The notes under the pieces are model-generated. The model searched no databases. It was not told where the DNA came from and worked only from the letters and a program-made list of their open reading frames with translations. Positions 2,114 to 25,209 of a stretch of DNA of 64,000 nucleotides are shown one piece after another. Position 1 is the stretch's first letter. Each line of letters begins with the position of its first letter. A program made the position numbers and the translations under genes. The DNA is from Candidatus Iainarchaeum sp. (GTDB taxonomy: Archaea > Iainarchaeota > Iainarchaeia > Iainarchaeales > SKW153): positions 413,745 to 477,744 of the forward strand of contig JAOAJD010000001.1 of the NCBI GenBank assembly GCA_026414365.1, given 5' to 3'.

Positions 2114-5100
2114 ATGAAAAAGATTCTTTTTGTTTTGTTGCTTTTTGTTTTTTTATTATGCGGGTGTATAGAAAATTCCTATAAAGAATTAAGATACGAG
2201 TGTCTTATCTTAAGTTCTTATTCTTCACAAAGCATAGTTGAATGCAATAATCAGGAAGATTGTTACAATAAGGTGAATAATTTTTTCGGTGTTGATGAGA
2301 AGGAATTTGAATATCCAGCAAATATTTATTTTCATGAATATAAAAATCATTTGGCAAGATCTTGGTTTTATTATAATAAGTCACTAAAGAACATAAGAGA
2401 AATACATAGAATTTGTAATAATACTGATTTGAATGAGTACGAGCTCAAAGATGAGGTCGATGATTTTATAAATAATTTTACTTTTTCTGTGGAGGAAACT
2501 CAAAAAGCAAATAAAAAAGCTATAGAATTAATTATAAGCTTGAAAAAATATTTGGATAAGGAAGAAATACCTCTCACTAAAGAAGAGCCATGGTTCATTA
2601 GTTATTCTATTTTAGAAAAAAACATTCTAATATTAAAAGGTATTGAGAGGATTGACGAAGAAACTTATGTTGGAAGATTTCTTAAAGAGACTAATAGACT
2701 AGATGAATTAGCCAAAAAGGTTGGTTTTCAAAGAAGATTAATGTCTGATTTACCAATAGTGCAATATTTTGACTACTTTGAAAATAAAGTCCCGTATTTT
2801 GAAAACATAGGACCTTTTAATCTTTCTCAATTCTTGAGAGAGTTTATCGACTATATTTCAGAAAGGAGTATACTTGAAGAAGCCAATAGTATTTTACGCT
2901 CCAGTAATGCATTCGAATTTTTCAATATTTATGATTCTCTGGTTGGAAAATCAAATTCTTTACCATCTTTACTTAAAGATAATTTACTCTCTTATATAAA
3001 AGCTAAAAAAATTTTTTACCAAAACATAGATTTTTTGTTTGACTCATTAGATAAGAATATTTTGTACGTTGAAGATAAGTTAAACTATTTATACTCGAAA
3101 GAATTTGACAGGTTGGATTCAAACTTTTTAAAACGTCTTATAGACATATCCCCAAAATCAACATCAATTTCTGCAAAAAACTTCGCGTTTGAATCTTTGG
3201 GCGGAGAAAAAGAAGAATTGGTAAAAAAGTTATATCAACTAAAATCTGAATTTTCTTCGATTAAAGAACAATATTATTTAAACAAGATTTCTTTAGGAAG
3301 ACTACTGCTTTCGCTTAAACAGAATAGTCTAAAAATTTTTGAGATAAAAAATAATGTTGATTTTTTATCATCCGAATTTCTCTTAAATTTAGATGCGATT
3401 TGTAAAGAAAGATTGGAGTTTATCAAAAGAGATGTAAGTCAAGAAAGAGATTATAAATTAATAAGTCTGAGTGCATCACTACTTTTTAATATCGAAAATT
3501 TTGAAAAAGAAAACAAACTAGATAAAAGAATTATTCTTTGTTATGATGCTATCAACAAATACGATGAATACCTTTTTGCAAAAGATTCTTACCAAAGATA
3601 TCTAGCTTTTGAGAAGGCAAAGTTGGATAACTGTTTTGTTTCACTGAAAGAGTTTTTCAAAGATAATAGCAATCAAAAAAATTATCCTGACTCTTTGTTA
3701 CAGAGGTTTAATTATCTAAAGGAGATATTGAAGGACAATAATAACTTGATTTATTTATTAGATAGCTGCGAAGAGTTGAAAAAAGATATCTTAGATTATT
3801 TTTTAGATTCTGAGGATATGAAACAGTTTGTTTATTATTATAAAGAATCCAAGCAATATCTCTCTATTTTACAAAAGTTGAATGCATATATGAATAGACA
3901 ACAAATAAACAGATACAATAATTTAGCAGAGTTAATTAAAACATGTGATTTTTTCGATAATAATGACAACCTAACAATTTTTTTAAAATGTAAGGATCTA
4001 GAAATAAACGTTGTTTATAATAATATAAAATCTCTATTTTATGAAGTATTTATATCATATTTAGAAAAAAAAGCGAATTATGAGATTGTTTGTAGTAGTT
4101 TTCCAGAAATTGATAATAATGTTGACTGTAACATAATAATATCTTTTGTAAATAATATAGCTAATATTGATGAAGACTTTGTTTTTTCTCTGCCAGTTAA
4201 TCTAGATAAAATAACTTCTATTGTTTATAAAGATAACCATATAAAAGAGGTCTTTGTCGATGCCAACAAGATAACGATTGATTTTAGTTTTGTTCCTCTT
4301 GGCAAAACTCTATTAATATTATCTTTCAATTCAATGATTGCTAAATCTTATAATGAGCAAAAGTTAGTTTATGCAACTCTTAGTAATGCAGTTTTCAAAA
4401 GGCAGGTTACTGTTCATATCAAACAATTATATTCAAATGATTTAAAAGGTAAAAACTGTTTTAATCTCAATAATTTTAAAGTTTCTGATGTTTATGTTGT
4501 TTCAGATAGTTTAAAGAGTTACTTCCTAGATGATAATGGCTGTGTTGTTTACATCATAAAACCAAGATTAAATAAAGAAGATGTTTTTATTTATTTTTCA
4601 ATTTTACAGCCATTTGAATATAGTTTTAAATTAGAGAGCCAGAATAGTGATGAGAATTATACTTATTACTTTTATAAGGCCATATTAATGAACAGATTAG
4701 ATGTCGATTTAGAAAATGCAAAGATAGAAATTAATTTTGCCAAAGGTGCTGATAATGTAGATATTTATGATGATTCCTTTACTAAAGTAGTTACAGAGTC
4801 TTTAAATAGTTCGTTAATTTTCAGATCATCGTTTTTGCCAAAACAAAGAAAAACATTCTATATTAGTTTCAAGGTTCGTAACTATCAAGATTTTTGGGTA
4901 AAGAAAATTTCTGACACAATTTCAAAACTCTTGTCTATAAATAAAAAAGATTCAAACCAACTTATAGAAGAATTAAAGTCTTATTATAATAAAGATTTAA
5001 GAGATAACAAAACAATTAGTTCATTGATTGAGTTACTTAATAGATCGGATAATTTTATTAGAAGTTGCCAAATTGAAGAATCGGAGAAGTCAAAGTTAGA

Positions 5101-6190
5101 TGCTTTATATTATGAAGTTTTAGAAAAAAGAAATAAACTAAAAAATAGTTTGGATGTTTTAGAAAGACTTAAACTCATTGAAGATTATAACATTTTAAAC
5201 TCCATATTGCAAAATATTGACCGTGCAATGTTAGATTTTAACAACTATTATGAAAAAAAAGATTATCAGAAAGCAAAAGAGTTGTTGTATTATTCACTGT
5301 CTTTGTTATCTGGGGCATCTGAAAAGTCTTTGCAAAATACATTATTTGATAAATGGATTGAACTTAAAAAGCAATTTGATTTGCTGCTGGCGGATAGTAT
5401 AGGTATTGAAAAGAAAATATTCAAGGAAAAATCAGATGCTTTAGAGAATACTTTTAACAAATATCTCAAAATTAGCGACATAAATTCTGCAGCAGACGTT
5501 TTAAACGAATTTTCGGTTTTACTAAAAAGTTTATCAGAAAGCAATTCGAAGAACAAAGAAAATATCTGCAATGATAACTTCAGAATATATAACGAGAATA
5601 ACGAACTATTGCTAAAATCAGAACAACTATTAACTAAATTATCAGATAACCTTAATTCTTTACCAGATGGTTTTTTTGAATCTATATCTTATGTTCCTCC
5701 TTTCTCCAAATCTGATTTAGATAGTTATTCAAAAAAATTATCACAACAGAGAACAAAAATTTTGTTAATAACAATTGATGAAAATTCTTGTATTGATCAA
5801 AACAATAAGAAGGTTCTTGAGAGTATTAACTCTAATTTAAACGATATTTTCGATAGGATTTCTAGAGATTATAATAAATTAAAAAAAGATGCAGAAGAAG
5901 TAATATTTTTAGCAAAGTTAAAAAAAGATAGTTCTCTGCCCAATAAGAAAGCTGATGAGCTATTTGAAAAAGCGAAAGAATTTTTGAGCAAACAGGAATT
6001 TCTCAAAGCAATAGCATACGCAAAAGCTTCGACAGAAGCATACTCTTTCAGAGAGCCTACTGCAAACCTTTATCTTGCAAATTTTCCATTTTCTATAGTT
6101 TTAATCCTTTTAATTTTGATTCTATTTTTAATATTAAAATTCAGAGAAACAAAAGGGCAAAGAACTGTTAGGATTTTAAGGGACTTTTGA
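2114..6190 (+). CDS. very large (1358 aa) predicted surface protein: lipobox signal peptide plus C-terminal TM anchor
   Basis: N-terminus MKKILFVLLLFVFLLCGC (signal peptide with lipobox-like LCGC). Long Asn/Lys/Glu-rich helical body. C-terminus ANFPF-SIVLILLILILFLIL-KFRETKG. Uninterrupted 4 kb ORF in a stop-codon-rich AT genome. Confidence 0.8.
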   Translation: MKKILFVLLLFVFLLCGCIENSYKELRYECLILSSYSSQSIVECNNQEDCYNKVNNFFGVDEKEFEYPANIYFHEYKNHLARSWFYYNKSLKNIREIHRICNNTDLNEYELKDEVDDFINNFTFSVEETQKANKKAIELIISLKKYLDKEEIPLTKEEPWFISYSILEKNILILKGIERIDEETYVGRFLKETNRLDELAKKVGFQRRLMSDLPIVQYFDYFENKVPYFENIGPFNLSQFLREFIDYISERSILEEANSILRSSNAFEFFNIYDSLVGKSNSLPSLLKDNLLSYIKAKKIFYQNIDFLFDSLDKNILYVEDKLNYLYSKEFDRLDSNFLKRLIDISPKSTSISAKNFAFESLGGEKEELVKKLYQLKSEFSSIKEQYYLNKISLGRLLLSLKQNSLKIFEIKNNVDFLSSEFLLNLDAICKERLEFIKRDVSQERDYKLISLSASLLFNIENFEKENKLDKRIILCYDAINKYDEYLFAKDSYQRYLAFEKAKLDNCFVSLKEFFKDNSNQKNYPDSLLQRFNYLKEILKDNNNLIYLLDSCEELKKDILDYFLDSEDMKQFVYYYKESKQYLSILQKLNAYMNRQQINRYNNLAELIKTCDFFDNNDNLTIFLKCKDLEINVVYNNIKSLFYEVFISYLEKKANYEIVCSSFPEIDNNVDCNIIISFVNNIANIDEDFVFSLPVNLDKITSIVYKDNHIKEVFVDANKITIDFSFVPLGKTLLILSFNSMIAKSYNEQKLVYATLSNAVFKRQVTVHIKQLYSNDLKGKNCFNLNNFKVSDVYVVSDSLKSYFLDDNGCVVYIIKPRLNKEDVFIYFSILQPFEYSFKLESQNSDENYTYYFYKAILMNRLDVDLENAKIEINFAKGADNVDIYDDSFTKVVTESLNSSLIFRSSFLPKQRKTFYISFKVRNYQDFWVKKISDTISKLLSINKKDSNQLIEELKSYYNKDLRDNKTISSLIELLNRSDNFIRSCQIEESEKSKLDALYYEVLEKRNKLKNSLDVLERLKLIEDYNILNSILQNIDRAMLDFNNYYEKKDYQKAKELLYYSLSLLSGASEKSLQNTLFDKWIELKKQFDLLLADSIGIEKKIFKEKSDALENTFNKYLKISDINSAADVLNEFSVLLKSLSESNSKNKENICNDNFRIYNENNELLLKSEQLLTKLSDNLNSLPDGFFESISYVPPFSKSDLDSYSKKLSQQRTKILLITIDENSCIDQNNKKVLESINSNLNDIFDRISRDYNKLKKDAEEVIFLAKLKKDSSLPNKKADELFEKAKEFLSKQEFLKAIAYAKASTEAYSFREPTANLYLANFPFSIVLILLILILFLILKFRETKGQRTVRILRDF

Positions 6191-8233: not shown

Positions 8234-10126
8234 TCATTTAAGTCTTAGTGCATCCAAATTTTTCAGCGCGTAAGAACTAACTTTAAATCTATTAGTCAAA
8301 TACCTCGCAAAGTCAACACAGTTCTGATTTTCTCCGTGGTTTACAACAATTCTCTTTGGAGCCGGTTTTATTGCTTTTATATAAGATACTAATTGGTTTC
8401 TGTCACTATGCCCAGAAAATCCTTCACAACTTTCGACTCTCATATTTATTTTCATTTCTCTTGTTTTTCCATTTTCTACAATCGGTATAGATCTTAATCC
8501 TCCTTGTATTTTTCTTCCTAGAGAGCCTTCTCCTTGCCAACCAACAAATATTAGTGTATTTCTTGGATCTTCAGCCATTGCATAGAGGTATCTTACTGAA
8601 ACACCACCTGTAAGCATTCCAGAAGATGCCAATATTATTGCTCCTTTTTCATTAACTATTACATCTCTATCATTAGATCTTGTTTCATGAAACAATTCTG
8701 AAGAGAAAGGCGAGTCATTATGTAATATTCTTGTTCTTACGTTTTGCCTTAGATATTCAGGATATGCTGTGTGTATTATCGAAGCCTCCTTTGTCATGCC
8801 GTCAATATAGCATTTTGTACCCTCAGGTAATAAACCTTTTTTATAAAAACTCTCCAAAACCAACATTATTTCTTGTGCTCTTCCAACTGCAAAAACAGGT
8901 ATTAGAACATTACCGCCCTGTTCCAAAGTTTCTTTAATTACTTTTAATAAATATTCTTCTGATTGTTGTCTATTTGGTTGAATATCATTTGAACCTCCGT
9001 AAGTACTTTCTATTATGAGAGTTTCTAACCTTGGATATTTAGTGTCAAGATTGTCAAATAATCTTGTAAAACCATATTTAAAGTCACCAGTGTATATAAC
9101 ATTATGTGCTCCTTGCCCAATGTGCAAATGTACAGAAGCACTTCCTAAAATATGAGCAGCATTATGGAAAGTTATTCTTATGTCAGGTGTAATATCAGTA
9201 ACTTCTCTATATTCTCTTGTTATGCAATATTTTACCATTTCTTTTACATCTCTCTCTGTATAAGGAGGTTCTTTATCATCTTTAATAAGTACATCAATAT
9301 AATCAAATTGTAATAATGCCATAAGATCTCTAGTTGGTTCAGTGCAATATACAGGTCCTCTATAGCCAAGTTTGAATAGATAAGGTACAAAGCCACTATG
9401 ATCTAAGTGAGCATGGCTAATTACAACGGCATCTATTTCATTAACAGGAAATCTTAAAGCGTCCAGGTATGGATATGGTTCTTCATTAGATGCAACATTT
9501 ATGCCACAATCTAACAATACTCTACTATCTTTAGTTTCTATCATCATACAACTTCTTCCAACTTCTCTAAAACCTCCTAATGCAGTTACTCTAATCCACC
9601 CATTTTGTGTTACAACATTTCCATAGATTTTATTAGCCAAAGCATACAAGATTTTTTTCCTTTCGTTTGAATATTTATGCAAATGGTGTCTTATTCCTTT
9701 TAATATCTCGCTTTCAGAAATAGGAGCTCTCTCTATTTTCGGAGTCCAACCGGTTGTTAAAGTTATTTGTTTAAGCGTTTCTCCACCTTTTCCTATTACT
9801 AAACCTGGTTTAAATGCTTCTATGATTACTTGACTAAAAGAGCTTTCAAACTCAATATTTTTTATGTCCGCATCTTTTGGCACTATCTCCAATATTTTTT
9901 GTTTCACAAATGCAGGATCTTTTTGTAAGCTTTTGTCTGTTCTAGTTTTTATTCTCTTTTTTAATTCTGCAGCTACTTCCGCTATATATTTTTCATTTTC
10001 GAAAAAAATTGCTGGATTCTTTGTGTATATTACAATCTCTGGTCCTTCAATATCTACATTTGTTACTTGCGCTTCTTTTGGTATATATTTGTCTACAACA
10101 GCCTTTACATGTTCTAAATATTCCAT
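8234..10126 (-). CDS. fttA: aCPSF1/FttA beta-CASP ribonuclease with N-terminal KH domains (transcription termination factor)
   Basis: 630 aa. KH-like GKGGETLK, metallo-beta-lactamase HAHLDHSG, beta-CASP and C-terminal H motifs. Typical archaeal CPSF1 architecture. Confidence 0.92.
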   Translation of the reverse strand: MEYLEHVKAVVDKYIPKEAQVTNVDIEGPEIVIYTKNPAIFFENEKYIAEVAAELKKRIKTRTDKSLQKDPAFVKQKILEIVPKDADIKNIEFESSFSQVIIEAFKPGLVIGKGGETLKQITLTTGWTPKIERAPISESEILKGIRHHLHKYSNERKKILYALANKIYGNVVTQNGWIRVTALGGFREVGRSCMMIETKDSRVLLDCGINVASNEEPYPYLDALRFPVNEIDAVVISHAHLDHSGFVPYLFKLGYRGPVYCTEPTRDLMALLQFDYIDVLIKDDKEPPYTERDVKEMVKYCITREYREVTDITPDIRITFHNAAHILGSASVHLHIGQGAHNVIYTGDFKYGFTRLFDNLDTKYPRLETLIIESTYGGSNDIQPNRQQSEEYLLKVIKETLEQGGNVLIPVFAVGRAQEIMLVLESFYKKGLLPEGTKCYIDGMTKEASIIHTAYPEYLRQNVRTRILHNDSPFSSELFHETRSNDRDVIVNEKGAIILASSGMLTGGVSVRYLYAMAEDPRNTLIFVGWQGEGSLGRKIQGGLRSIPIVENGKTREMKINMRVESCEGFSGHSDRNQLVSYIKAIKPAPKRIVVNHGENQNCVDFARYLTNRFKVSSYALKNLDALRLK

Positions 10127-13623: not shown

Positions 13624-14202
13624 TCACCTCAAAACTTTCAAATCTTTCCACCAACTCATAGATTTTCTTCTCAATAGAGCTTTAAATATAATCTTTGCCT
13701 CTCTTGTTTTTAATCTTGGCTTTATTTTGTTTAGCCAGTCTGAAGCATTTTCATAGCCTGCTTCAAGATACTCTTTTGCTTGAAAGGCACATTCTAAATA
13801 ATCAGCATCTTTGACTATTGTTGATTCAATTGTTTTTTCTTCAAATAGCTCTTGCATTAACTTTTTATATTCTTCCAAAAAAACATATTTGCTCTGTTCT
13901 TCTATAACTTTTTTTGCTATTTTCTTGTTATCTAAATATCTACTTCCAACTTTATGTATATCATTTATTCTAGCTTCATGTATATCATGCATTATTGCCA
14001 TTTTAAGACATTTTTCAGCATCAACATTTTTCATTTTTGCGAGAAAATATGCTATCAAAGACATCCTAAATGAATGATCAGCAACACTTTCAGGTGTTTT
14101 AACCCAACAAAAATACCAGCCTGTTCTTGGCAAACATTTTAACAACCCGATCTCGAAGAAGAAGTCAACCATCTCATATACTTTATTTTTTTTCTTTTTC
14201 AT
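13624..14202 (-). CDS. HD-domain phosphohydrolase (YfbR-like 5'-deoxynucleotidase family)
   Basis: LPRTGW..., ESVADHS, HDIHE and DADYLE motifs in the canonical HD-superfamily order. Confidence 0.8.
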   Translation of the reverse strand: MKKKKNKVYEMVDFFFEIGLLKCLPRTGWYFCWVKTPESVADHSFRMSLIAYFLAKMKNVDAEKCLKMAIMHDIHEARINDIHKVGSRYLDNKKIAKKVIEEQSKYVFLEEYKKLMQELFEEKTIESTIVKDADYLECAFQAKEYLEAGYENASDWLNKIKPRLKTREAKIIFKALLRRKSMSWWKDLKVLR

Positions 14203-14253
14203 AATATCATTTAATTCGGATATTTTTAAATTTAAATATAATAAATCATATTT

Positions 14254-14892
14254 ATGGCTAAAATATTTACTAATTATGACGATTTTGTTAATAGCTTCAA
14301 AGATTTTAACAATAGAAAGAGACTTGAAGCATTAAAGAGATATCTTGCTAGAGGTGGAGTAATCTCTGCAAAACAAATTGGTTCTAGAATAATTTTGTCT
14401 TATCCAGACCCCCAAAGAGTTATTAAGCAGATAGATGAGTTAAAAAAGAGAAAAGAGATTTATGAGAAACAATATGCTGATTGGAAAAAAAAGAAAGATT
14501 CCGCGCAGTTTTATGATATAAAAAATAAGATTCTCAAATATTCTGATCCTGTATATTGGAAACATTTAGCAAAATATTTTTCGGATAAGGACTATAAACA
14601 AGATGTTGATAATGTGAAGTTACCGGTACATTTAGTAGCAGATGAACGTTGGAAGCCCATGATTAAAATGTTTGTTGAGGATCCAGAATATAGAGCAAAT
14701 CTAGTTGAGACTTTTAATAATTCGATAGTTTATAAAAAAGATAAAAAGCTTGCCAAGTATGCGGATCAGATAAAGTCCTTCAGGATAGATATAAGTAATA
14801 AGGTTTTAGAAGATTTAGAGCAAAAGATTTTGGATCTCCAGAAGGATATAGACGCTCTAAATGAAATATTCAATTGGAGTAAAGAAAAATAA
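14254..14892 (+). CDS. hypothetical protein
   Basis: 212-aa charged helical ORF directly upstream of orc1/cdc6. No family recognised. Confidence 0.6.
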   Translation: MAKIFTNYDDFVNSFKDFNNRKRLEALKRYLARGGVISAKQIGSRIILSYPDPQRVIKQIDELKKRKEIYEKQYADWKKKKDSAQFYDIKNKILKYSDPVYWKHLAKYFSDKDYKQDVDNVKLPVHLVADERWKPMIKMFVEDPEYRANLVETFNNSIVYKKDKKLAKYADQIKSFRIDISNKVLEDLEQKILDLQKDIDALNEIFNWSKEK

Positions 14893-14921
14893 ATTTCAAT
14901 TTAAAACAAAAAGGTATTTAT

Positions 14922-14953
14922 CTAATCAAATATTAGGAAAACTAATCTATTAG
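14922..14953. promoter_or_regulatory. pair of short inverted repeats CTAAT-N(5/2)-ATTAG upstream of orc1/cdc6
   Basis: ctaatcaaatattag (14922-14936) and ctaatctattag (14942-14953), the latter running into TAGTGGAAT. Function unknown (promoter operator or origin-recognition-like element). Confidence 0.25.
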
Positions 14954-14983
14954 TGGAATTTTGTTTGCTTCCCTAACTCAATA

Positions 14984-16231
14984 TTGTTAAAACATCTTTT
15001 CTTTTGCTATTATAGGGGGTTTGGTTTGATAGCTGAAAGTATCTTCAAAAGCGAATTTGATAAAAATTCTGTATTTTTAGATAGAAACCTTATAATGCCT
15101 TCATACATCCCTGACGAATTGCCTTTTAGAGAAAAACAGATAGAAGAAGTTAGTAGAGTAATAGCACCAGCATTGAAGGGTCAGAGACCAGAGAATCTTT
15201 TTATATATGGAAAAGTTGGAACAGGAAAAACATCCGTATCAAAACACGTTATGAAAAAATTCAACGAATTTGCTTCTAACAATAAAATAAACGCAGAATG
15301 TTATTATGTGAATTGTAGAACTCACAACACGGTTTATAAAGTTTTAAATAAAATAGCAAAAGATATATATGCTGAAGAAAGTTTTATAGGTTTTCCTAGT
15401 ACCTTCATATACGAAAAGATTTTAGAATATTCAAAACAACAAAAACATATTATCTTTATTTTAGACGAGATAGACAAGGTCAGAGACTTAGATGAATTAA
15501 TGTATAATCTTACAAGAGCGAATGATGAGCTGGACAAAGGATCTATTTCAGTTATAGGAATTTCAAATAATGTATTATTTAAAGACAGATTGGATGCAAG
15601 AACTAAAAGTAGTTTATGTGAAAAGGAGTTGGTATTTCCGCCATATAATGCAGAAGAGCTAATAGAAATATTGAAAAAGAGAGCTAAATTAGCTTTTAAA
15701 GAAGGAGCTATTTCAACCTCTGCAATAAGTTTGGCTGCAGCATATGCAGCAAAAGAAAGCGGTGATGCAAGAACTGCTGTATTGCTTCTCTTAAAAGCAG
15801 GCGAAATTGCAGACAGGCTTTCTTTAAACATCGTCGAAGATGAACAAGTAAAAGCTGCAAAAAGTCTAGTAGAAGAAGAGATTGTTTTAAGTCTTATAAG
15901 TACTCTACCTAGTCAACAAAAGTTGGTTTTGTATGCAATAGCCAAATTAAGTTTAGATAAAAAACCAATAAAATCTTTAATTGGTTTAGAACAAGGAGTA
16001 TTATTTTCTGGAGAGATTTACGAAGAGTATACAAGATTAGCAAAAAAGTTTAAAGAAAGCATCGTATCTGCGCGATGGTATAGAGAGTATATTTCAGAGC
16101 TAGAGGTATATGGTCTTATTATTACAACAAATTCTGGAAAAGGAATAAAAGGTCAAACTAGGTTAATAAAATTAGCTTCAGATCCAACAAAGATAAGAGA
16201 TGTGTTAGAAAAGGAACTCTTTGGAAATTGA
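14984..16231 (+). CDS. cdc6: Orc1/Cdc6 replication initiator
   Basis: Walker A GKVGTGKTS, Walker B IFILDEID, PYNAEEL sensor region, C-terminal winged helix. Real start probably TTG at 15026, after a GGGGG SD-like run. Confidence 0.93.
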   Translation: MLKHLFFCYYRGFGLIAESIFKSEFDKNSVFLDRNLIMPSYIPDELPFREKQIEEVSRVIAPALKGQRPENLFIYGKVGTGKTSVSKHVMKKFNEFASNNKINAECYYVNCRTHNTVYKVLNKIAKDIYAEESFIGFPSTFIYEKILEYSKQQKHIIFILDEIDKVRDLDELMYNLTRANDELDKGSISVIGISNNVLFKDRLDARTKSSLCEKELVFPPYNAEELIEILKKRAKLAFKEGAISTSAISLAAAYAAKESGDARTAVLLLLKAGEIADRLSLNIVEDEQVKAAKSLVEEEIVLSLISTLPSQQKLVLYAIAKLSLDKKPIKSLIGLEQGVLFSGEIYEEYTRLAKKFKESIVSARWYREYISELEVYGLIITTNSGKGIKGQTRLIKLASDPTKIRDVLEKELFGN

Positions 16232-16294
16232 TTTTGCACAAGCAAAGAGGTCCTGTTTTGTTATTTATAAATAACGTTTTTTATTTTATTTGAG

Positions 16295-16648
16295 GTGATT
16301 GCTTTGCCTTATCCAGTAAGAAAATTTAGAGTTGGTTCAATTAGTGTTGCAATATGGCAAAATGATAGTAAAGATGGTAACAAGTTTTACTCAGTTACGC
16401 TAGATAGAAGATACAAGGATAAAGACGGTAGTTGGAAAAGTTCTAACAATTTAGGCATTAATGATCTACCAAAAGCAATATTGGCTTTACAAAAAGCTTA
16501 CGAATTTGTTTTGTTTAAAGAGCCTGAGTTGCAAGAAGATATTAATGAAGATATTAAAGAAAATGATGAAAATAATGAAGAAATTAATGGAGATGTAGTT
16601 TCGAGAGGTCCAAAAGAAGATTTTAATAAAGATCTTTTTGATTTTTAA
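16295..16648 (+). CDS. small PC4-like putative ssDNA-binding protein with acidic C-terminal tail (tentative)
   Basis: Strong SD GAGGTGAT at 16292-16299, probable TTG start at 16304. N-terminal beta-rich core plus helix, then a 45-aa acidic tail ending DLFDF. Confidence 0.55.
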   Translation: MIALPYPVRKFRVGSISVAIWQNDSKDGNKFYSVTLDRRYKDKDGSWKSSNNLGINDLPKAILALQKAYEFVLFKEPELQEDINEDIKENDENNEEINGDVVSRGPKEDFNKDLFDF

Positions 16649-16721
16649 TAATCTTTTTGTTTTTAGAGTGCATAATGTTCAACGAATTCGCAATAACAGA
16701 GTTAATTTTTTATAACTTATA

Positions 16722-18842
16722 ATGGTTTTTATGGGCATAGTTAAAAATTACAATAATTTAATTAACAGCATTCTCGAAATTAATAGTATTGAAGATTTCA
16801 ACGAAATGCAAAAACTAGTTTTAAATAAAAATTGGGGAAGTTCTAATTTAGTAATTAGTTCACCTACTGCTAGTGGGAAAACTTTGGTTGCAGAGCTAGT
16901 TGCATTAAACACAATCTTAAACAAAAACAAGAAAGTTTTGTACATCTGTCCTTTGCGGGCTATTGCTTACGAACACTATAACTCTTTTAAGATTAAGTAT
17001 GCTAAGAGGTTTGGAATTAGGGTTGCTGTTAGTACAGGTGATTTAGATTCAAGTAGTTCTTATTTAAGTTCATATGACATAATATTTTCAACATTTGAAA
17101 AAATCGATAGTTTAATAAGACATAAGTCAGAGTGGTTAAGTTCTATTGGTTTGTTGATTATTGATGAGGTACATTTTTTAGATAGTGATAGAGGCCCAAC
17201 TTTAGAAGTTATTGTTGGGATATTAACTCAGATGAATAAAGATATGCAAGTAATAGCTTTAAGTGCTACTATTCCAAACGCAGAAGATATTTCAGGGTGG
17301 CTAAATGCAGATTTAGTAATTTCAAATTATAGACCAGTCAAACTTGTAGAGAAGATATATTTTGATGGAGTACTTTATAATGGTAGTGAAGAATTTATAG
17401 ATAAGTTAAAAACTCCTTTGGATTCTATACTTTTAGATACTCTCCAAAAAGATAAACAAATTTTAATATTTGTTAATACCAGAAAGAATGCGCAGAGTTA
17501 TGCTGAAAAATCAGCAAATTTGGTCAGTAGTTATTTGGCAAATAAAGAAAAAAAATATCTTAATAACCTTTCTGAAAAAATTTTATCCTGTTTAGATAGC
17601 CCTACAAAACAATGTGAGCTTTTGGCTAACCTAATCAAGAAAGGAGTTGCTTTTCATCATGCTGGCTTGTTACAAAAACAGAGAGATTTGGTTGAAAATG
17701 CATTTAGAAAAAATTTAGTGAAGGTGTTGTTTGCAACTCCCACATTGGCAGCAGGTGTTAATTTACCTGCTTTTAGAGTTTTGATAAGTTCTCTTTACAG
17801 GTATTCTGGAGCAGGAAATTCTTTAATATCTGTGAATGAATACAAACAAATGATAGGAAGAGCAGGAAGGCCAAAATACGATGTTTATGGAGAATCAATA
17901 ATAATAGCAAGAAGCAAAAGTGAGCTTTCAGAACTCTATAATAACTATGTAAAAGGTGATTTAGAGAATATTTATTCTAGATTTTCAAATGAGTCTTTGT
18001 TAAGAACACATTTACTTTCTTTAATATCAACAGGTTTTGTTTATGATTTGTTGTCTTTGGAAGATTTTATAAAAAGAACTTTTTATTATCACCAAAACAA
18101 AAATTTTGATTGTATTGGAGAAATAATGCCCTTACTTAAACAACTCGAGGAGTTTGGCTTTATTGAGGGTAATGAAGAAAGATTTTATGCTACTAAATTA
18201 GGTAAAAGAGTCGCAGAACTTTATTTGGATCCAGTTTCTGCGTACAAAATGATAAATATGTTGAAATTAAAAAAAGATGCTGATTTATTTTATCTTTTCT
18301 TAATAGCTAACACTTATGAATTTGCTCCTTGGTTTGCTCCTTCTAAAGAAAATGAAGAAGAGGTTTATGCATTATTATATGAGAATATGCCAAATATTGG
18401 TTTGTGTGATAAAGACTTATTTAATGATTATTCAATATTAGAAAAGTTCAATACTGTTCTAATGTTAAATGATTGGATAAATGAAAATAACGAAGAACAA
18501 ATATTAGAGAAATACAATCTCTCACCAGGTTTACTTTATAATAAATTAGAGATTTCTGATTGGCTCGTTTATTCTGCATTTGAACTTTCAAAGCTTTTAG
18601 ATTTAAGTTATCATTACAAAAATCTTACGCATATGAGAATCAGGTTAAAATATGGTGTAAAGGAAGAACTGTTACCTTTAGTGAGTGTTAAAGGAATAGG
18701 CAGGGTAAGGGCTAGAAAACTTTATAATGCAAATATAAAGACAATACAAGAATTAAAGAATACGGACATTAAAGATTTGAGTAGACTCATCGGTATAAAA
18801 ACTGCAGAACACGTTTTAAAACATTTAAATACTTATAAATAG
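16722..18842 (+). CDS. hel308: Hel308/Hjm Ski2-like DNA helicase
   Basis: Motif I SPTASGKT, motif II DEVH, motif III SAT, motif VI GRAGRP. C-terminal HhH VKGIGRVRARKL. Confidence 0.9.
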   Translation: MVFMGIVKNYNNLINSILEINSIEDFNEMQKLVLNKNWGSSNLVISSPTASGKTLVAELVALNTILNKNKKVLYICPLRAIAYEHYNSFKIKYAKRFGIRVAVSTGDLDSSSSYLSSYDIIFSTFEKIDSLIRHKSEWLSSIGLLIIDEVHFLDSDRGPTLEVIVGILTQMNKDMQVIALSATIPNAEDISGWLNADLVISNYRPVKLVEKIYFDGVLYNGSEEFIDKLKTPLDSILLDTLQKDKQILIFVNTRKNAQSYAEKSANLVSSYLANKEKKYLNNLSEKILSCLDSPTKQCELLANLIKKGVAFHHAGLLQKQRDLVENAFRKNLVKVLFATPTLAAGVNLPAFRVLISSLYRYSGAGNSLISVNEYKQMIGRAGRPKYDVYGESIIIARSKSELSELYNNYVKGDLENIYSRFSNESLLRTHLLSLISTGFVYDLLSLEDFIKRTFYYHQNKNFDCIGEIMPLLKQLEEFGFIEGNEERFYATKLGKRVAELYLDPVSAYKMINMLKLKKDADLFYLFLIANTYEFAPWFAPSKENEEEVYALLYENMPNIGLCDKDLFNDYSILEKFNTVLMLNDWINENNEEQILEKYNLSPGLLYNKLEISDWLVYSAFELSKLLDLSYHYKNLTHMRIRLKYGVKEELLPLVSVKGIGRVRARKLYNANIKTIQELKNTDIKDLSRLIGIKTAEHVLKHLNTYK

Positions 18843-18911
18843 GAAGTTTTTTGTTTTCCACATTATAATTAAATATATGTTGTTAGCAAAAATTATTTAT
18901 ACTTCTTAGAG

Positions 18912-19280
18912 GTGGTTGAATTGGCATTTATCGAAAAGCTTTTGGGTAGACAACAACAAACAGAAGATATAGAAGACTTTTTGAATGCATTAGATGAAGA
19001 AGATGAAGAACTCTACGAGGATGCAGATGCATTTGTTAGACCAGTAGTCTTAAACACAGAAGAGGATGTCAGTTATGTAATGGAGGAGCTCAAGAAAGGT
19101 AATTTTATCTTACTCAACATTGCAGACTTATCTAGGAGAAATGCAATTAAGTTGAGAGATTTAATAACAGCTATAAAAGAGCAAGTGTTGCAAATAGATG
19201 GAGACATAGCACGAATATCCCAAGAGAAGATCTTAATAACTCCGAGTAGAGTTAAAATAATGAAGAGGAAGCCCAAGTAA
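18912..19280 (+). CDS. sepF: SepF-like cell division protein (FtsZ membrane anchor)
   Basis: Core VRPVVLNTEEDV...LKKGNFILLNI..L......R.....I...V..I.GDIARIS..ILITP matches the SepF/DUF552 pattern. Probable TTG start at 18921 gives an N-terminal amphipathic MAFIEKLLG. Confidence 0.8.
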   Translation: MVELAFIEKLLGRQQQTEDIEDFLNALDEEDEELYEDADAFVRPVVLNTEEDVSYVMEELKKGNFILLNIADLSRRNAIKLRDLITAIKEQVLQIDGDIARISQEKILITPSRVKIMKRKPK

Positions 19281-19347
19281 AGGCTTTCTTTTCATTTACT
19301 TTGTTACTTTTATTTGTGGTTTAGTATATTTTAGTATATAATCTTTT

Positions 19348-20094
19348 ATGTATCTTGACAGTAAGGCTTTTTCTGTTGAGTTTTCTCTGGAAAATTCTTT
19401 GGAATTAGTTAATTCTTTACTAAATTCAAGATATTGGAGAAAATTTAGTAGAGGGAGCATCAAGCTGATTTATGCACCTTGTTGGTATTTTGGTTATCAT
19501 GCTTACGAATTAAACAAAGATGGGGTAGCTAGTATAACACATGCTGGTAGATTAGTTTTTATAGAATTCTTAAATGAGTTTGATGAATCAATAGCAAAAC
19601 TCTATTCTAAATTAGATAAGGGGCTAAAAAATCAAATAGATGAACAATATCCTTTTGAAGTAAAAGAATCTAAGCTTTCAAAAAATGAAGTTTCGGATCT
19701 AATAAAAATAAAATTATCTTCACAATTCAAAGCAAAAAAAGATAATATTGTTATCGATTCTTTAGAGAAAATATATGTTCCCTTTTGGGTTATCTATGTA
19801 TCTTTATCCGAAGATACTCATAGTTTAATAGTTAATGCTATAACTGGAGAAATAGTGAATGAAGCGGAAGTTCCAGAGAGAGATGTAGGATGGATTGAAA
19901 TCACTAGAGAAATGTTGGATGAGTTGAAAAATCCAGGAGCGTGGGTTGAATATACTAAAAAGTTTAGTGCTAAACTTAGCAATAAGAAAGAAGTCACGAA
20001 TTGGAGTTTGCTAGAGGACAAAGGTCTTCTAATTCTTTTGTTAGCACTGTTGACAGCATTATTTTTAATAATAACTGCAATAGCATATTTGTAG
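19348..20094 (+). CDS. hypothetical tail-anchored membrane protein
   Basis: 248 aa. Duplicated Y(A/V)P.W motif (LIYAPCWYFGY, KIYVPFWVIYV). C-terminal TM GLLILLLALLTALFLIITAIAYL ends the protein. Confidence 0.6.
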   Translation: MYLDSKAFSVEFSLENSLELVNSLLNSRYWRKFSRGSIKLIYAPCWYFGYHAYELNKDGVASITHAGRLVFIEFLNEFDESIAKLYSKLDKGLKNQIDEQYPFEVKESKLSKNEVSDLIKIKLSSQFKAKKDNIVIDSLEKIYVPFWVIYVSLSEDTHSLIVNAITGEIVNEAEVPERDVGWIEITREMLDELKNPGAWVEYTKKFSAKLSNKKEVTNWSLLEDKGLLILLLALLTALFLIITAIAYL

Positions 20095-20208
20095 TTGTTT
20101 TATGTTTAACTTAGTTAAATAAAAGCAGAAATATAAAAAATTATAGCTTTAGATACTGTTCTATAAAGATAATAAACAAATAGTTTAAAATGAGATTGTT
20201 TTGAGGTT

Positions 20209-23200
20209 TTATACAAATTCGAAAAGTTTTTTTGGTATGTATTTTTTTGAATCATCTTGTATTTCTGTTTGATCTTCATCTTTATAATCTAATATCTTTT
20301 TTTGCTCTCTTCTTTCGTTTAGAAATATAGACTGAACTTCCTGTTCTATTAAATCAATCCGTTGTCTTATATAATTGCTTAGATTGTATTGTCTAACCAA
20401 ATCCTTTGCAATTTTTAAATATTTCTTTACAGAGCCTTCTGCAATTGTTAATACAATATTCCCTTTACCACATTTTTTACATTTCCCACTCAAAGGTATC
20501 CTTCTATACTTTTCATTACAGTTTGTGCATCTAAAACTCTGCTTAGAGAAAGATCTCGCATTTCCTATAATATCTGGCAAAAAGTGGCTCATCAACACTC
20601 TCTCTAGAGCATCCTTTTGATCAACAGCTCTTATTTTTGCTTGCAATTCCGCTTGCCTTTTAATCTTATCTTCCATACTTTTCAGTTGCACATATCTTGA
20701 AAATTTGGGCCCAATATCGAATATTTTTGTATTATGTGTAAATTTCAATCCTCTATACTGACTCTCTTTCCCAAGTCTCTTCGAAACAATTTCTATATTA
20801 TCTATATTTGGTAAAGATTCTGTTAAACTTTTTTCATATAGTTCTAGAGGATACTTTTCACAAATTTCCATTTCATAAACTTCATTATCTATCTCTTGTG
20901 GATTAATGTTTGTTGTAAAAACCAGAGGTGCATCCATTCTACCACCTCTTTTTATTGGCAGGTATTTGTTAGAGAAATTTAATAAAACATCCAAAAGGAG
21001 CATTATGCTATCTTGATCACCATCAGCATTACGTCTTTTTGCTAAATGAAAATAAGGATGCGCAAAACATACTCTTGCTTTCGTAAATCCTATTATCCTG
21101 CCAACTACTGCTGCTGAGGTATGAGGTGCTAAGCCAAGTATTATTTGACCAACTAAATCTTCCTTATTTTTAACATTATAATAACTTTTTAACCCGTAGA
21201 ATTTTACTAGAAGTTCATCGATAAATCCACATTCTCTTATTAAAAATTCTGCCGCCTCTTCGTTAATAATTATATCCTGAACAAATAACTCTAATATTTG
21301 ATCTTCATCTTTTAGATCTTTGTCAAACATATCTTTGGTATAACCAAGCTCTTTTAATTTTTCAATGCTAGTTCCAATTTCGATAGGTTTGAAATGCGTC
21401 AAAGGTGCATTTATCATGTCAAATCTAATAGTACCATCTCTATAAACATGTAAATCGTATTTTGCTCGTAGAATACCTTTTTCCAGAGGTTCTGGTGTTT
21501 TGTCTTCATTTATTAAACCCCTAACACCTTTTACAATTTCTGGGTATTGGTTTTGCATACCTAAATTTTTTAGAGCTCTTTCGAATATGCTCTTTATGTC
21601 AAGGTTGTATTCTTCGTAGGCGATAGTCTCACTCGTACATTCTTCGCACTTATCTTTGAAAACATGTTTTTTACATTTTGGGCAATAAAATATGTTTTTT
21701 CCCTTATTGCCACAATGACATATTAAGTTATCTATTACTTTTTTACATTTTTCACAATAATATATTTTTATTTCTACTTTTATAGGCTCTTTTGTTTTTT
21801 CGGAATATTCTATGGCCTTGTTTATAGATCTCGTTGGCCCACCATACAACCCTATTGGAAATAGCACATGGGGCTTTCCTTCCATCTCTCTAGCTTTAGC
21901 AGCTTCAGGCCTGCCCATTCTCAAGCCTACAAATGTTCCACATTTATCCTTTATTTTTATACCTGAAATTTCTTCCAATATTTCTAATATGCTTTTTTTG
22001 GTATTGGGTGTTAATTCTGAGAAATAACCAAGTGTTTTTAATAATGGATAGGCATATGTTTTTCCTACGATAATATTATTATTTTCTATTGTATGTGGCA
22101 AACCTATGTCTTCCATAACTTTTTTTATTTTGGGTTTATAAGGGAATATTAGTTTAACTATCTTACTATCTTCAAATATTTTTTCACAGTTTTTTGCTTC
22201 TTTGATTAGTTCTAAGATATCTTCTTTTTCTGCGCAATTAAAATAAAAAGTGTATTTTGGATGTAGAGCAATAGGCAGTTGCATAGATATTTCAACAGCA
22301 GTGAAAGGATCAATGTTGTTCGGATCTTTAATAAGTTTCTCTACATTTATTCCTTTTTCTTCTGCCTCTTTTTGCAATTTTTCTAACTCTAAACACCACC
22401 ACTCTTCACAATATCCTACTGGTAGAAGGTTATTTGCACTCTTTCTAAAGTCGCCTATGCTACAAAGATAATCTCCTAAAAATAAAAATTGGTCTACCTC
22501 ATCTCTAATTAGTTGTGCTTCTTCCACACTTTCTATCTTTCTAACTTCTCCATTTTTTAGTTTAACAATAGGTCCTTCTATACTATCGCAAGGGAATATT
22601 TCTGCACTCTTACCCGGTTTTTCTACTTTCAATTGTGTGCCTACTGCAATGAATTCATCTAGCAAGTACATAGTAGCAGGGTGTATTGCTTTTGCCATAA
22701 TACCTGTATTTCTACATCTACCGTATCTTAATCTAAAACCAAATTTTTTACCAGGATATGAAAAAATTGGCCTACCCGCTGCCATTCTTGATATATATTT
22801 ATAATCAACATCTTCATCTTCACTGCTAATATTTTTATCAACTTTTATTATTTCTTCTAACCAATTCCAATCTAAATTTAGCATTTTTGCATATGATAAT
22901 ATTTTTTTAGCCTTTAGCGCGATACCTTCGCTTATAACTAAACACATTCCTCCTCTAACTCTATTGGAAGGTATTCTTGGTAAATCCTTATATATTGCCA
23001 CTTCTCTATCCTCAGTAGGTTCTCCGTTAATACAAACAGGACAGCCTCTTACAATGGCTCTAACTTCATCAGGTGTGAGTTTATATTGCCTAGTAAATAT
23101 TTCATCATATATTTGGCATTCTTCAACATATCTTTCAATTTCATCTTCCGTTGGCTTATATCTATCTAATCCTAAAATCTTTCTCCCAAGATCACCTAAA

Positions 23201-23706
23201 ATTAGAGGAAAAACTTGTGCTGTTCCACCTGCAGCTCTTATTGGGCCAGCAAAATATATATCTACATATTCACTGTCATCAAAATTTTTACTTATTCTAA
23301 CACTTGGAACACCATCTATAGGAGCTACAACTACACCTTCTGTTATAATCATTAGACAACTTTTTATTGCTTGTTCTAATCTTTTTTCTCTATTCTCGAG
23401 TTTAACCCACTTTTCAGTTAGAATTTCTTCGAATAATCTAAAAACTGCTTTTTCTCTATTATTATTCTCTTCTTTATAAAGCTCGGCATATCTTTTAGCT
23501 ATACCTTTAGGACCTACAATATTCTCACATCTTTCTCCTAAATCTAAAGATGGTTTACTTTCAACATCTGAGGAAACATCTTTTCCTAAACTTCTAGCTA
23601 TCTTTGCAATCTCATACTGTTCACTTACTTTTTCTGCCAGCATGTTAAAATATCTTCTTGTTTCTTTGTCGCATTCAATCTGTTTTAGTAAAAAGCTTTC
23701 TATCAT
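20209..23706 (-). CDS. polC: DNA polymerase D (PolD) large subunit DP2
   Basis: 1165 aa. Multiple Cys4 zinc modules (CEKCKK..CHCG, CPKCKK..CEEC, CTNCNEKY..CKKCG) and conserved DP2 blocks. Directly follows DP1. Confidence 0.95.
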   Translation of the reverse strand: MIESFLLKQIECDKETRRYFNMLAEKVSEQYEIAKIARSLGKDVSSDVESKPSLDLGERCENIVGPKGIAKRYAELYKEENNNREKAVFRLFEEILTEKWVKLENREKRLEQAIKSCLMIITEGVVVAPIDGVPSVRISKNFDDSEYVDIYFAGPIRAAGGTAQVFPLILGDLGRKILGLDRYKPTEDEIERYVEECQIYDEIFTRQYKLTPDEVRAIVRGCPVCINGEPTEDREVAIYKDLPRIPSNRVRGGMCLVISEGIALKAKKILSYAKMLNLDWNWLEEIIKVDKNISSEDEDVDYKYISRMAAGRPIFSYPGKKFGFRLRYGRCRNTGIMAKAIHPATMYLLDEFIAVGTQLKVEKPGKSAEIFPCDSIEGPIVKLKNGEVRKIESVEEAQLIRDEVDQFLFLGDYLCSIGDFRKSANNLLPVGYCEEWWCLELEKLQKEAEEKGINVEKLIKDPNNIDPFTAVEISMQLPIALHPKYTFYFNCAEKEDILELIKEAKNCEKIFEDSKIVKLIFPYKPKIKKVMEDIGLPHTIENNNIIVGKTYAYPLLKTLGYFSELTPNTKKSILEILEEISGIKIKDKCGTFVGLRMGRPEAAKAREMEGKPHVLFPIGLYGGPTRSINKAIEYSEKTKEPIKVEIKIYYCEKCKKVIDNLICHCGNKGKNIFYCPKCKKHVFKDKCEECTSETIAYEEYNLDIKSIFERALKNLGMQNQYPEIVKGVRGLINEDKTPEPLEKGILRAKYDLHVYRDGTIRFDMINAPLTHFKPIEIGTSIEKLKELGYTKDMFDKDLKDEDQILELFVQDIIINEEAAEFLIRECGFIDELLVKFYGLKSYYNVKNKEDLVGQIILGLAPHTSAAVVGRIIGFTKARVCFAHPYFHLAKRRNADGDQDSIMLLLDVLLNFSNKYLPIKRGGRMDAPLVFTTNINPQEIDNEVYEMEICEKYPLELYEKSLTESLPNIDNIEIVSKRLGKESQYRGLKFTHNTKIFDIGPKFSRYVQLKSMEDKIKRQAELQAKIRAVDQKDALERVLMSHFLPDIIGNARSFSKQSFRCTNCNEKYRRIPLSGKCKKCGKGNIVLTIAEGSVKKYLKIAKDLVRQYNLSNYIRQRIDLIEQEVQSIFLNERREQKKILDYKDEDQTEIQDDSKKYIPKKLFEFV

Positions 23707-23709
23707 AAA

Positions 23710-25209
23710 CTACCAACCTTCATAAAAATTCTTTTTGAATACTTTTCTTGTTTTTGTGTTTGCAACTAATAAGATACCTGGTGTTGGTACATGTCCTTGC
23801 TCTTTTTGATACTCTGTTTGCAATTGCCAAGTTGAACCATTCATAATTGTACAACCTCTGTAATTACCATATCCTGTGTGATGTAAATCTCCTCCAAAAT
23901 AAAAGTCTGGTTTTTCTCTTATAATCATAAAATTTTTACTTTCTGGCAAATAGGGGTTATTTAATCCATAACTAACCATCAAGTCTCTTCTCTTTAGTAA
24001 TTCAATTATTGCTTTTTCTGGTTCTGTTAACCGAATATCTTTAATAGATTGTGCAAGATCATGTATAGAAGCTCCATGGTATATAATGCACTTCAGACCT
24101 TCTATTTCGAACCAACTTGGGTTACCAACTAAATGGATATTTTTTAATTTACTTGCATTAGGCAAATATTCTTTGCTTATTGCAGGCTGTGGTTCCGCTC
24201 TTCTAACAGCATCATGTTGTCCAGGACAGATGAAAACTTCGATATGTTCTGGGACTAGTTCCAAATATTTTTCTAAAGTTTCGTATTGTTTATATACATC
24301 TTTTATTGCAAGTTCTTCATACTGCTCCGGATAAACCCCTATTCCATCAACGTTATCACCTGCTATCACTAAATATTTTATTCTTCCTGCTTCTTCCCTT
24401 TCCTTTTCGCTCATACCTTGACCTTTTCCATTTATCCACTTCAGCATATTTAAAAATTCTCTCTCTAAAAATAGCTTACTACCTACATGAATATCCGAGA
24501 TCAACGCAACATTAAGTTCTCTTCTAGCTTCAGTTGTGCCCTGTTCCAAATCAGGCCAAAAAAAATCTTCCATAAAAAATAATTCTTTATCAATACATCT
24601 TGCTTTAATTCCAATTACATCATCATTTAATATCTTTTCAACTTCTTTTAACTGTTTGTTATTATCTCTTTTTGCTATTACGATACATTCATCTTCCAAA
24701 TCTTCTAATCTTATGGCTAAATTGCCATTCTTTGTGATCCATTTCTCGGCAACCATACCTATAAAATCAACAGTTTCGTTTTCTTTTGTTTTTTTTATTT
24801 CTGAAATGTTTTTTGGTTTAAAACCAGGTCTTTGTCTCAAAATTGTTGATAACAATTGAAACTTGTCTCTAAACATCGCTAGAAAATCTTCAACTTTGCC
24901 TTCAGAAGTACTTTTTCTTGTTATGTCATATTCTTCTAATATTTTGAAGTCAGAATTAATTTCTTTAGCTATTGGTTTAAATTTTACTTTCTCTACAATA
25001 ACTTCCTTTATAACAGAACTTACTTTAGTTCTAGATTTTATCAAATATTCTTCAACATCTTTTTCTTCTATTATCACTTTACCAATATTTTCTAACTCAT
25101 CAATAATTTTCTTATAATCTTCTTTTATCAGGATATCTAAAGCGCGTTGGGATAATATTATGTTCTTGTTTGTAGCATATTCCACAATTTCTTTTACTTC
25201 TTCATTCAT
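23710..25209 (-). CDS. polB: DNA polymerase D (PolD) small subunit DP1 (Mre11-like phosphoesterase)
   Basis: Calcineurin-like phosphoesterase motifs SDIHVGS, AGDNVDG, PGQHD and GGDLHH, with an OB-fold region upstream. Confidence 0.93.
   Translation of the reverse strand: MNEEVKEIVEYATNKNIILSQRALDILIKEDYKKIIDELENIGKVIIEEKDVEEYLIKSRTKVSSVIKEVIVEKVKFKPIAKEINSDFKILEEYDITRKSTSEGKVEDFLAMFRDKFQLLSTILRQRPGFKPKNISEIKKTKENETVDFIGMVAEKWITKNGNLAIRLEDLEDECIVIAKRDNNKQLKEVEKILNDDVIGIKARCIDKELFFMEDFFWPDLEQGTTEARRELNVALISDIHVGSKLFLEREFLNMLKWINGKGQGMSEKEREEAGRIKYLVIAGDNVDGIGVYPEQYEELAIKDVYKQYETLEKYLELVPEHIEVFICPGQHDAVRRAEPQPAISKEYLPNASKLKNIHLVGNPSWFEIEGLKCIIYHGASIHDLAQSIKDIRLTEPEKAIIELLKRRDLMVSYGLNNPYLPESKNFMIIREKPDFYFGGDLHHTGYGNYRGCTIMNGSTWQLQTEYQKEQGHVPTPGILLVANTKTRKVFKKNFYEGW

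Follow-up and report, generated by a model that had tools for sequence, protein, structure and literature searches.

A widespread unannotated archaeal protein family encoded beside radA, rpa and hel308: a candidate accessory single-stranded DNA-binding factor with a probable PC4/PUR-type fold

What is the function of the small gene that lies between orc1/cdc6 and hel308 in the archaeon Candidatus Iainarchaeum sp.? We considered this question for a stretch of 64,000 nucleotides of its genome (assembly GCA_026414365.1, contig JAOAJD010000001.1, positions 413,745 to 477,744 of the forward strand), hereafter the window, in which the open reading frame (ORF) that we call X lies on the same strand as these two genes. 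An earlier note, made from the sequence alone, had described X as an orphan, with a core resembling the single-stranded DNA (ssDNA) binding protein PC4 and an acidic tail in the style of bacterial SSB, possibly acting in place of RPA in replication. We found instead that X belongs to a large unannotated family, present mainly in DPANN archaea, whose genes recurrently adjoin those encoding RadA, RPA or Hel308. The reading that we favour, and in which we place moderate confidence, is that X assists recombinational repair by RadA, RPA and Hel308 as an accessory factor that binds ssDNA and has a fold of the PC4/PUR type.

The gene X and its parts are located in the window as follows:

16295-16648 (+): ORF of X in its GTG form, 117 amino acids
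16304-16648 (+): coding sequence of X from TTG, stop codon included, 114 amino acids (ORF list, protein-database entry P0001, N-terminal alignment)
16292-16299 (+): Shine-Dalgarno-like GAGGTGAT, read from the sequence, overlapping the GTG at 16295
16264-16273 (+): TATA-like box TTTATAAATA, read from the sequence, putative archaeal promoter of X
16652-16663 (+): T-rich tract CTTTTTGTTTTT immediately after the stop codon of X, read from the sequence, putative archaeal terminator
16304-16519 (+): conserved basic core of X, residues 1-72, four predicted beta strands and a long helix (alignments A1/A2; AlphaFold)
16520-16645 (+): disordered acidic tail of X, residues 73-114, ending EDFNKDLFDF (predicted local distance difference test score, pLDDT, of 48-63; composition)

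The sequence and the ORF list confirmed what the earlier note had read here, namely the coordinates of the ORF, its length of 117 residues, the Shine-Dalgarno sequence, the TTG start and the gaps of 63 nt from the stop codon of orc1/cdc6 (16231) to X and of 73 nt from X to hel308 (16722). The TTG at 16304 seems a better start call than the GTG at 16295, because GAGGTGAT overlaps the GTG, the 114-residue form that begins at the TTG is identical to P0001, and the resulting N-terminus (MPYPVRKF...) aligns with the conserved P-x-K-K-F N-terminus of the homologues. The TATA-like TTTATAAATA sits 31-40 nt 5' of this TTG and, taken with the T-rich tract downstream, suggests that X may be an independent transcription unit.

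The description of X as an orphan did not survive database searches. A word-indexed search recovered 232 homologues, all of 70-150 residues and all annotated as 'hypothetical', the named sources being Diapherotrites/Iainarchaeum, Woesearchaeota and Nanoarchaeota, and a scan in which each GTDB species was represented by one genome detected relatives in 242 species-level genomes, with a core identity of 45-68%. When 1.84 billion representatives of 50%-identity clusters were searched exhaustively with the family profile, 6,268 matched at E<=1e-3 and, with the stricter limit of E<=1e-10, 1,954. The conserved core of about 70 residues can be written P-x-KKF-x-G-x-I-x-A-x-IW-x-N ... F-x-TV-x-LDRRYKDKDG-x-WK-x-T-x-SLR-x-NDLPKA-x-L-x-LQKAYEYL; F8, G11, W18, N20, R35, Y37, K38, W44 and the NDLPKA/QKAYE helix are near-invariant and P4 is also conserved. 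A spurious reading frame, arisen by chance in AT-rich DNA, would not have a core conserved across hundreds of species, and we rejected that explanation.

Neither Pfam nor NCBIfam gave a meaningful family when the window protein, 53 homologues and 10 members that are divergent or long were scanned; a scan of IMG/VR with the family alignment returned zero relatives, and we found no description of the family in the literature. Domain fusions were considered as a functional clue and discarded, as the longer members (255-280 residues) carry just unannotated N-terminal extensions. With so many clusters matching its profile and neither a Pfam nor an NCBIfam model, the family merits a database entry.

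The gene neighbourhoods of the family were compared by clustering all ORFs up to 5 kb from X in 82 loci, and the recurrent clusters were checked with Pfam; of the 242 genome matches, the best 80 were examined. Synteny was counted per species, with shared ancestry not factored in, over the 78 species-level loci that have room downstream. The loci of group A (Woesearchaeota/Nanoarchaeota-type, about 52 loci) have the order [membrane-anchored proteins]-RPA-(YdjM)-X-RadA. RadA is encoded by the next same-strand gene in 51 of the 78 loci, with a median gap of 29 nt (n=45), and matches Rad51 PF08423 with an E-value of 4e-84; RPA is encoded up to four genes upstream of X in 31 of the 78 and is canonical, with an oligonucleotide/oligosaccharide-binding (OB) fold, Rep_fac-A_C and a zinc finger. 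Group B (Iainarchaeota-type, about 20 loci including the window) has the order NAC-p212-X-(PIN, nucleotidyltransferase)-Hel308, with hel308 directly following X in 8 loci and at most four genes away in 13. In 16 loci the gene for the uncharacterised 212-residue protein p212 precedes X at a distance of up to three genes, and the radA-linked lineage does not have it; p212 and X may be parts of one functional unit. In the smaller group C, a gene for DNA ligase lies at most about 6 kb from X, mostly downstream (within six genes in 5 loci) and upstream in one. In neither group B nor group C was RPA or RadA found up to 10 kb from X.

The replication link that the earlier note had drawn from orc1 is not supported, since the position and orientation of Orc1 vary even among hel308-linked loci and most members of the family adjoin radA. 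Orc1 adjoins X only in the closest relatives of the window (L001, L009) and is elsewhere moved or inverted. A 298-residue unannotated gene at 5018-5914 (+) of L001 lies between orc1 and X there and is missing in the window, which indicates that the orc1-X adjacency is recent. Wherever a recurrent neighbour in these loci has a known function, this concerns ssDNA intermediates, be it in recombination, repair or replication.

Other features of these loci were observed. A YdjM-family membrane protein (PF04307, E-value 2e-25) is encoded between RPA and X in 22 loci, for example at 9249-9701 (+) of L039; ydjM is a gene of the SOS regulon in E. coli. On the 5' side of RPA, group A encodes three or four conserved proteins on the same strand (c15, c14, c17 and c3; for example L034 4796-6895 and L016 5077-5595), each with a short basic N-terminal segment ahead of a single hydrophobic helix, an arrangement reminiscent of archaeal type IV pilin-like signal sequences; c3, the one of which a representative was scanned, has no Pfam match. 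One longer member of the family follows an ORC/Cdc6-like ATPase on a 3-kb contig. In L086 and L087 (3400-10300) the 167-residue member P0157 lies amid about 20 small unannotated same-strand ORFs, a run flanked by XPB and a DUF790 protein on one side and by a DUF87/HerA-like ATPase on the other; the region looks like an integrated mobile element with its own copy of X. Copies of X also occur on contigs labelled Falkowbacteria, Poribacteria, Thaumarchaeota and Methanosarcinales (e.g. L007, L045 and L011, and about 20 'uncultured Methanosarcinales' metagenome-assembled genomes). The contigs with the Methanosarcinales label mostly show the DPANN-type RPA-X-RadA order, and these odd labels are probably due to mis-binning or automatic naming rather than to true hosts.

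The core of X is basic (isoelectric point, pI, of 9.8; 13 Lys or Arg) and contains 10 aromatic residues. Two AlphaFold runs with the family alignment agree on its structure, with a core pLDDT above 90 in the full-length model and of 92, together with a predicted template modelling score of 0.77, in the core-only model. The secondary structure predicted in this way consists of strands 6-10, 13-21, 27-38 and 44-47 and helix 52-72, in agreement with the three or four beta strands plus a helix that had been proposed from the sequence, and the conserved aromatic and basic residues F8, W18, R35, Y37, K38 and W44 are placed on the strands. The model has the single beta-beta-beta-beta-alpha unit of about 65-80 residues that defines the PC4-like type II class, to which PC4, the phage T5 PC4-like protein, YdbC, SP_0782 and Borrelia Pur-alpha are assigned (PMC7549692). 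All of these form homodimers in which the helices are swapped, and between families there is 'no apparent sequence conservation' (Janowski & Niessing 2020, PMC7549692).

Foldseek searches of the PDB with both models gave the same best analogue, Borrelia Pur-alpha (3n8b/3nm7), with 73/76 residues aligned. Its chains took ranks 1-3, 6, 7 and 9 in the core-only run and 1-3 and 6-8 in the full-length run, and all seven fell within the top nine or ten in both. On these models, we consider the assignment of a PC4-like fold to X plausible. An OB-fold reading was also considered and rejected, as the number and order of the strands are wrong and there is no OB-family match in Pfam or NCBIfam; the SSBs of E. 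coli and H. pylori appeared in Foldseek only at E-values of 0.9-1.1.

The tail of the window protein contains 16 Asp or Glu in 42 residues, has a pI of 4.05, against 9.8 for the core, and terminates in DLFDF. The tails of its closest relatives end in EEEMEF (P0002), EEEFEF (P0003), AEEFEF (P0004) and DEEFEF (P0007) or, over a longer stretch, in ...SDFKSAAQEEEMEF for P0002, ...GDFKSAS[ED]EEFEF for P0003 and P0007 and ...GDFKSASAEEFEF for P0004, to be compared with ...EDFNKDLFDF in the window. The tip motif DF...[F/M]-[D/E]-F is common to the window protein and this closest clade, and the tip is therefore under selection in that subclade. Group A tails have 9-31 residues and are mostly acidic, many of them ending in EEVI, EEIVM, EEIVA or EEIVY and others in EDVE or otherwise. 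A PIP-box reading of the DLFDF tip, which we take to resemble the PCNA-interacting peptide ...TLFDFL of Pyrococcus RFC-L, and a Rad52/SSAP-like beta-beta-beta-alpha core were also considered. The tip is lineage-specific, and neither PCNA-partner nor Rad52 structures were among the structural matches of X.

The mechanism that we favour can be outlined from these elements. The 72-residue basic, aromatic-rich core would fold as a PC4/PUR-type beta-beta-beta-beta-alpha unit, would pair as a helix-swapped homodimer, by analogy with the type II domains, and would bind single-stranded nucleic acid on the face of its beta sheet. In the cell, X would assist recombinational repair and fork restart beside canonical RPA, RadA and Hel308, its presumed partners. 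The acidic tail, where present, would probably act either as a partner-docking peptide or as a mimic of DNA within the same chain that controls access to the basic surface.

Several results weigh against this reading, the first of which concern the sequence. Neither the window protein nor any of the 53 homologues matched PF02229, PurA (PF04845) or DUF2128 (PF09901) at E<=1, and phmmer and a family-profile hmmsearch against all PDB sequences (E<=10) gave chance matches only, without any PC4 chain. Comparison of the X family by hhalign gave probabilities of 0.3-0.4% with a PC4 alignment and of 0.1% with five human/fly PUR repeats. The PC4 alignment, built from 120 homologues of a search seeded with human PC4 (checked against 1pcf), is vertebrate-heavy, with an effective number of sequences of about 3, which limits the sensitivity of hhalign. 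As a control, PC4 was compared with the PUR repeats, which have the same fold, and reached only 0.6-1.3%; since the control is equally blind, hhalign cannot see the fold class, and these results exclude membership of the PC4 family and not membership of the fold class. The greedy hhalign alignment picks the very register that the earlier note had proposed (VTLDRRYKDKDG; GISLNPEQW / SLrxNDLPKA), at a non-significant P=0.15. The likeness to PC4 and YdbC is retained as one of topology class, with the register reproduced, and membership of X in the PC4 family is not supported.

The structural scores are also a reason for caution. The matches to Borrelia Pur-alpha are sub-significant (E-values of 0.059-0.085, probability 0.82-0.85, template modelling scores of 0.28-0.40, root-mean-square deviation of 11 Å, 12-14% identity), and the top 50 PDB matches of both models include neither PC4 chains nor 2ltt and 5zkl (YdbC/SP_0782); the deviation of 11 Å may come from a monomer model that is unable to place a swapped helix. 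Many unrelated small proteins made of a sheet and a helix (NTF2-like, LOV, SH2) score similarly, and a search of the predicted viral structures of BFVD was uninformative, with only uncharacterised phage proteins at template modelling scores of at most 0.43. The check by AlphaFold and Foldseek returned a top match of the right class, at sub-significant scores, and left PC4, YdbC and Whirly unmatched. The remaining reservations concern the genes and the tail. The neighbourhood evidence is correlative and much of it may be synteny inherited within two or three related lineages. Most of the other group B (hel308-linked) proteins have 5-13 residues after the helix and no tail, and part of the length of the Asn/Lys/Glu/Asp-rich tail may be compositional in a genome of 27-32% GC. 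The SSB-style tail described by the earlier note is real in the window and is not supported as a feature of the family, in which the acidic tail is a recurrent but dispensable, lineage-variable add-on.

A more specific proposal is that X is a DPANN recombination mediator, which would bind ssDNA coated with RPA and, via its acidic/hydrophobic tail, either transfer it from RPA to RadA or bring in Hel308. Such a role would parallel that of Rad52, DSS1-BRCA2, UvsY or the RPA-handling module of HELQ, and the RPA-(YdjM)-X-RadA order, the short median distance of 29 nt to radA and the conserved tail tips all fit with it. We regard it as unlikely.

Since X lies directly upstream of radA or hel308 and on the same strand, a common position for an autoregulator, it could also be a small transcription regulator of the adjacent gene that binds melted or single-stranded promoter DNA. 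The fold class is rich in transcription cofactors, PC4, Pur-alpha and Whirly being transcription factors as well (PMC7549692), and in the window X has apparent promoter-like and terminator-like signals of its own. However, Pfam and NCBIfam revealed no helix-turn-helix or other archaeal regulator domain, the target would differ by lineage (radA, hel308, ligase) while the core stays 45-68% identical, and the median gap to radA suggests co-transcription and not the promoter layout of a regulator and its target. We judge this explanation quite improbable.

A little more doubtful again is the proposal that X is mainly an RNA-binding protein or RNA chaperone and that its position among repair genes is incidental. 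Within the fold class, Pur-alpha, MRP1/2 and the coat proteins of phages bind RNA; several of its members are RNA binders (PMC7549692), and the bacterial PC4-like protein YdbC binds ssRNA weakly (PMC3575825). The group A genes that follow radA often encode a TRAM-domain protein and a LigT 2'-5' RNA ligase-like protein, with a third recurrent protein there, c4, of about 200 residues, that resembles ribosomal protein S2 by eye only. These RNA-related genes, however, come after radA and do not occur in the hel308-linked group, and the tightest and most frequent neighbours of X are RadA, RPA and Hel308.

Just as doubtful is the view that the likeness of fold is coincidental and that X is a protein-protein adaptor or a structural subunit that binds no nucleic acid. 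It draws on the fact that every structural match is sub-significant, with NTF2-like, LOV and SH2 proteins at similar scores, and that no profile links X to any nucleic-acid-binding family. Against it stand the basic core, with conserved Trp, Tyr, Phe, Arg and Lys on its strands as is typical of ssDNA- or RNA-binding sheets, the seven Pur-alpha chains at the top of two independent searches, and a gene context that is exclusively one of DNA transactions. The regulator, RNA-binder and adaptor explanations are all less well supported than that of an accessory ssDNA binder.

The weakest explanation is the one towards which the earlier note had leaned, that a reduced archaeon which has lost its OB-fold RPA or SSB uses X for ssDNA binding in replication, comparable to ThermoDBP of Thermoproteales or the PC4-like SSB proposed for phage T5. 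As that note had remarked, no RPA is visible in the window: profile hidden Markov models built from the RPA and RadA of neighbouring loci detected neither of them in the 64 kb, in line with the absence of RPA within 10 kb on either side of X in the hel308- and ligase-linked loci. Although the basic core and acidic tail recall SSB and gp2.5, the window context includes Orc1 and PolD, and displacement of the canonical SSB has an archaeal precedent (PMC3914693), we find this very improbable, as X lies within four genes of a canonical OB/zinc-finger RPA in 31 species and the family thus coexists with RPA, a stretch of 64 kb from a contig that measures at least 522 kb is no basis for a genome-wide absence of RPA, and the SSB-like tail is missing from most relatives in the context group of the window. 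With RPA encoded in the same clusters, replacement of RPA is unsupported as the main explanation at the level of the family.

We return to X as a probable accessory ssDNA-binding factor. Its family would be new in sequence, would belong to a fold class already known, and has a recombination context that is distinctive and conserved. Bacteria (RecFOR), phages (UvsY) and eukaryotes (Rad52 and BRCA2-DSS1) have mediators by which the recombinase is loaded onto SSB-coated DNA; to our knowledge, archaea, with RadA and RPA, have no clear equivalent of these, and a small conserved unannotated protein encoded before radA, behind rpa or before hel308 is a concrete candidate for an accessory factor. PC4 and PUR proteins have been described as absent from archaea (PMC3575825, 2013), and a widespread archaeal family of the PC4/PUR fold class would, if true, extend this class.

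In the window, X is surrounded by the following genes:

13624-14202 (-): HD/YfbR-like 5'-deoxynucleotidase
14254-14892 (+): p212, the upstream companion of X in the hel308-linked lineage
14984-16231 (+): Orc1/Cdc6, upstream neighbour of X (Pfam Cdc6_lid 1e-18, Cdc6_C 4e-18, AAA_22)
16722-18842 (+): Hel308-type helicase, downstream neighbour of X (Pfam DEAD 2e-30, Helicase_dom4_arc 1e-25, Helicase_C, HHH_5)
18912-19280: SepF
19348-20094: conserved 248-residue partner of SepF
20209-23706 (-): PolD DP2
23710-25209 (-): DP1-like PolD subunit

Pfam agrees with the names that had been given to the two immediate neighbours of X, and p212 has no significant Pfam match. The region 13624-25209 is a replication and cell-division island with an HD hydrolase, p212, Orc1, X, Hel308, SepF and PolD. 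Among the other loci, over-long Orc1/Cdc6 ORFs of 632-1075 residues are found in L014, L019, L027 and L050 (13716-16052, -, in L050); the Orc1 of L050 has GKTGCIAGDSLV... directly after the Walker A lysine, an insertion that looks like an intein in the P-loop. Elsewhere in the window, Rfam detects a tRNA (43.7 bits) at 57677-57779 (-), where ARAGORN finds none, nor any other tRNA in the window; the span of 103 nt suggests an intron-containing archaeal tRNA that ARAGORN may have overlooked.

Among known systems, bacterial SSB, T7 gp2.5 and crenarchaeal SSB resemble the window protein in having a basic core and a disordered acidic tail with a hydrophobic or aromatic end. The core of X differs from these OB-fold proteins in its four strands followed by a C-terminal helix, and many members of the X family have no tail. 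Whirly proteins of plants (p24/Why1), of the PC4-like type I class, have the same repeat topology, and their acidic/aromatic C-terminal tail is proposed to be autoregulatory. They differ from X in having two repeats per chain and forming tetramers, and gave no sequence or Foldseek match to it. In organelles they bind ssDNA and modulate both recombination and repair (PMC7549692; PMC3245945).

The bacterial proteins YdbC and SP_0782 are, like X, small stand-alone prokaryotic proteins with the same topology. YdbC coexists with SSB, which it is proposed to complement (PMC3575825), and X likewise coexists with RPA; unlike YdbC, X does not match the DUF2128 profile, and no linkage to recA or radA has been reported for YdbC. 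Human PC4 and yeast Sub1 share, in their C-terminal domain (1pcf, 2c62), a four-stranded sheet with a C-terminal helix and basic and aromatic residues with the model of X; their curved sheet presents an ssDNA-binding face, and they have roles in replication, repair and transcription. The regulatory Ser/acidic and Lys-rich region of PC4 is N-terminal, whereas the acidic tail of X is C-terminal and present in some lineages only.

As for the neighbours of X, Hel308 binds RPA and acts with RadA-dependent recombination, and metazoan HELQ has an N-terminal RPA-handling module that is missing in archaeal Hel308 (PMC13623763). Of all these systems, Pur-alpha of Borrelia burgdorferi is the best structural analogue, a stand-alone prokaryotic protein of about 75 residues with the same beta-beta-beta-beta-alpha order, which has a single PUR repeat, forms a PC4-like type II homodimer and binds single- and double-stranded DNA (PMC7549692). 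The X family is set apart from it by a signature of its own (RRYKDKDG-WK, NDLPKA-L-LQKAYE) and by its recombination gene context.

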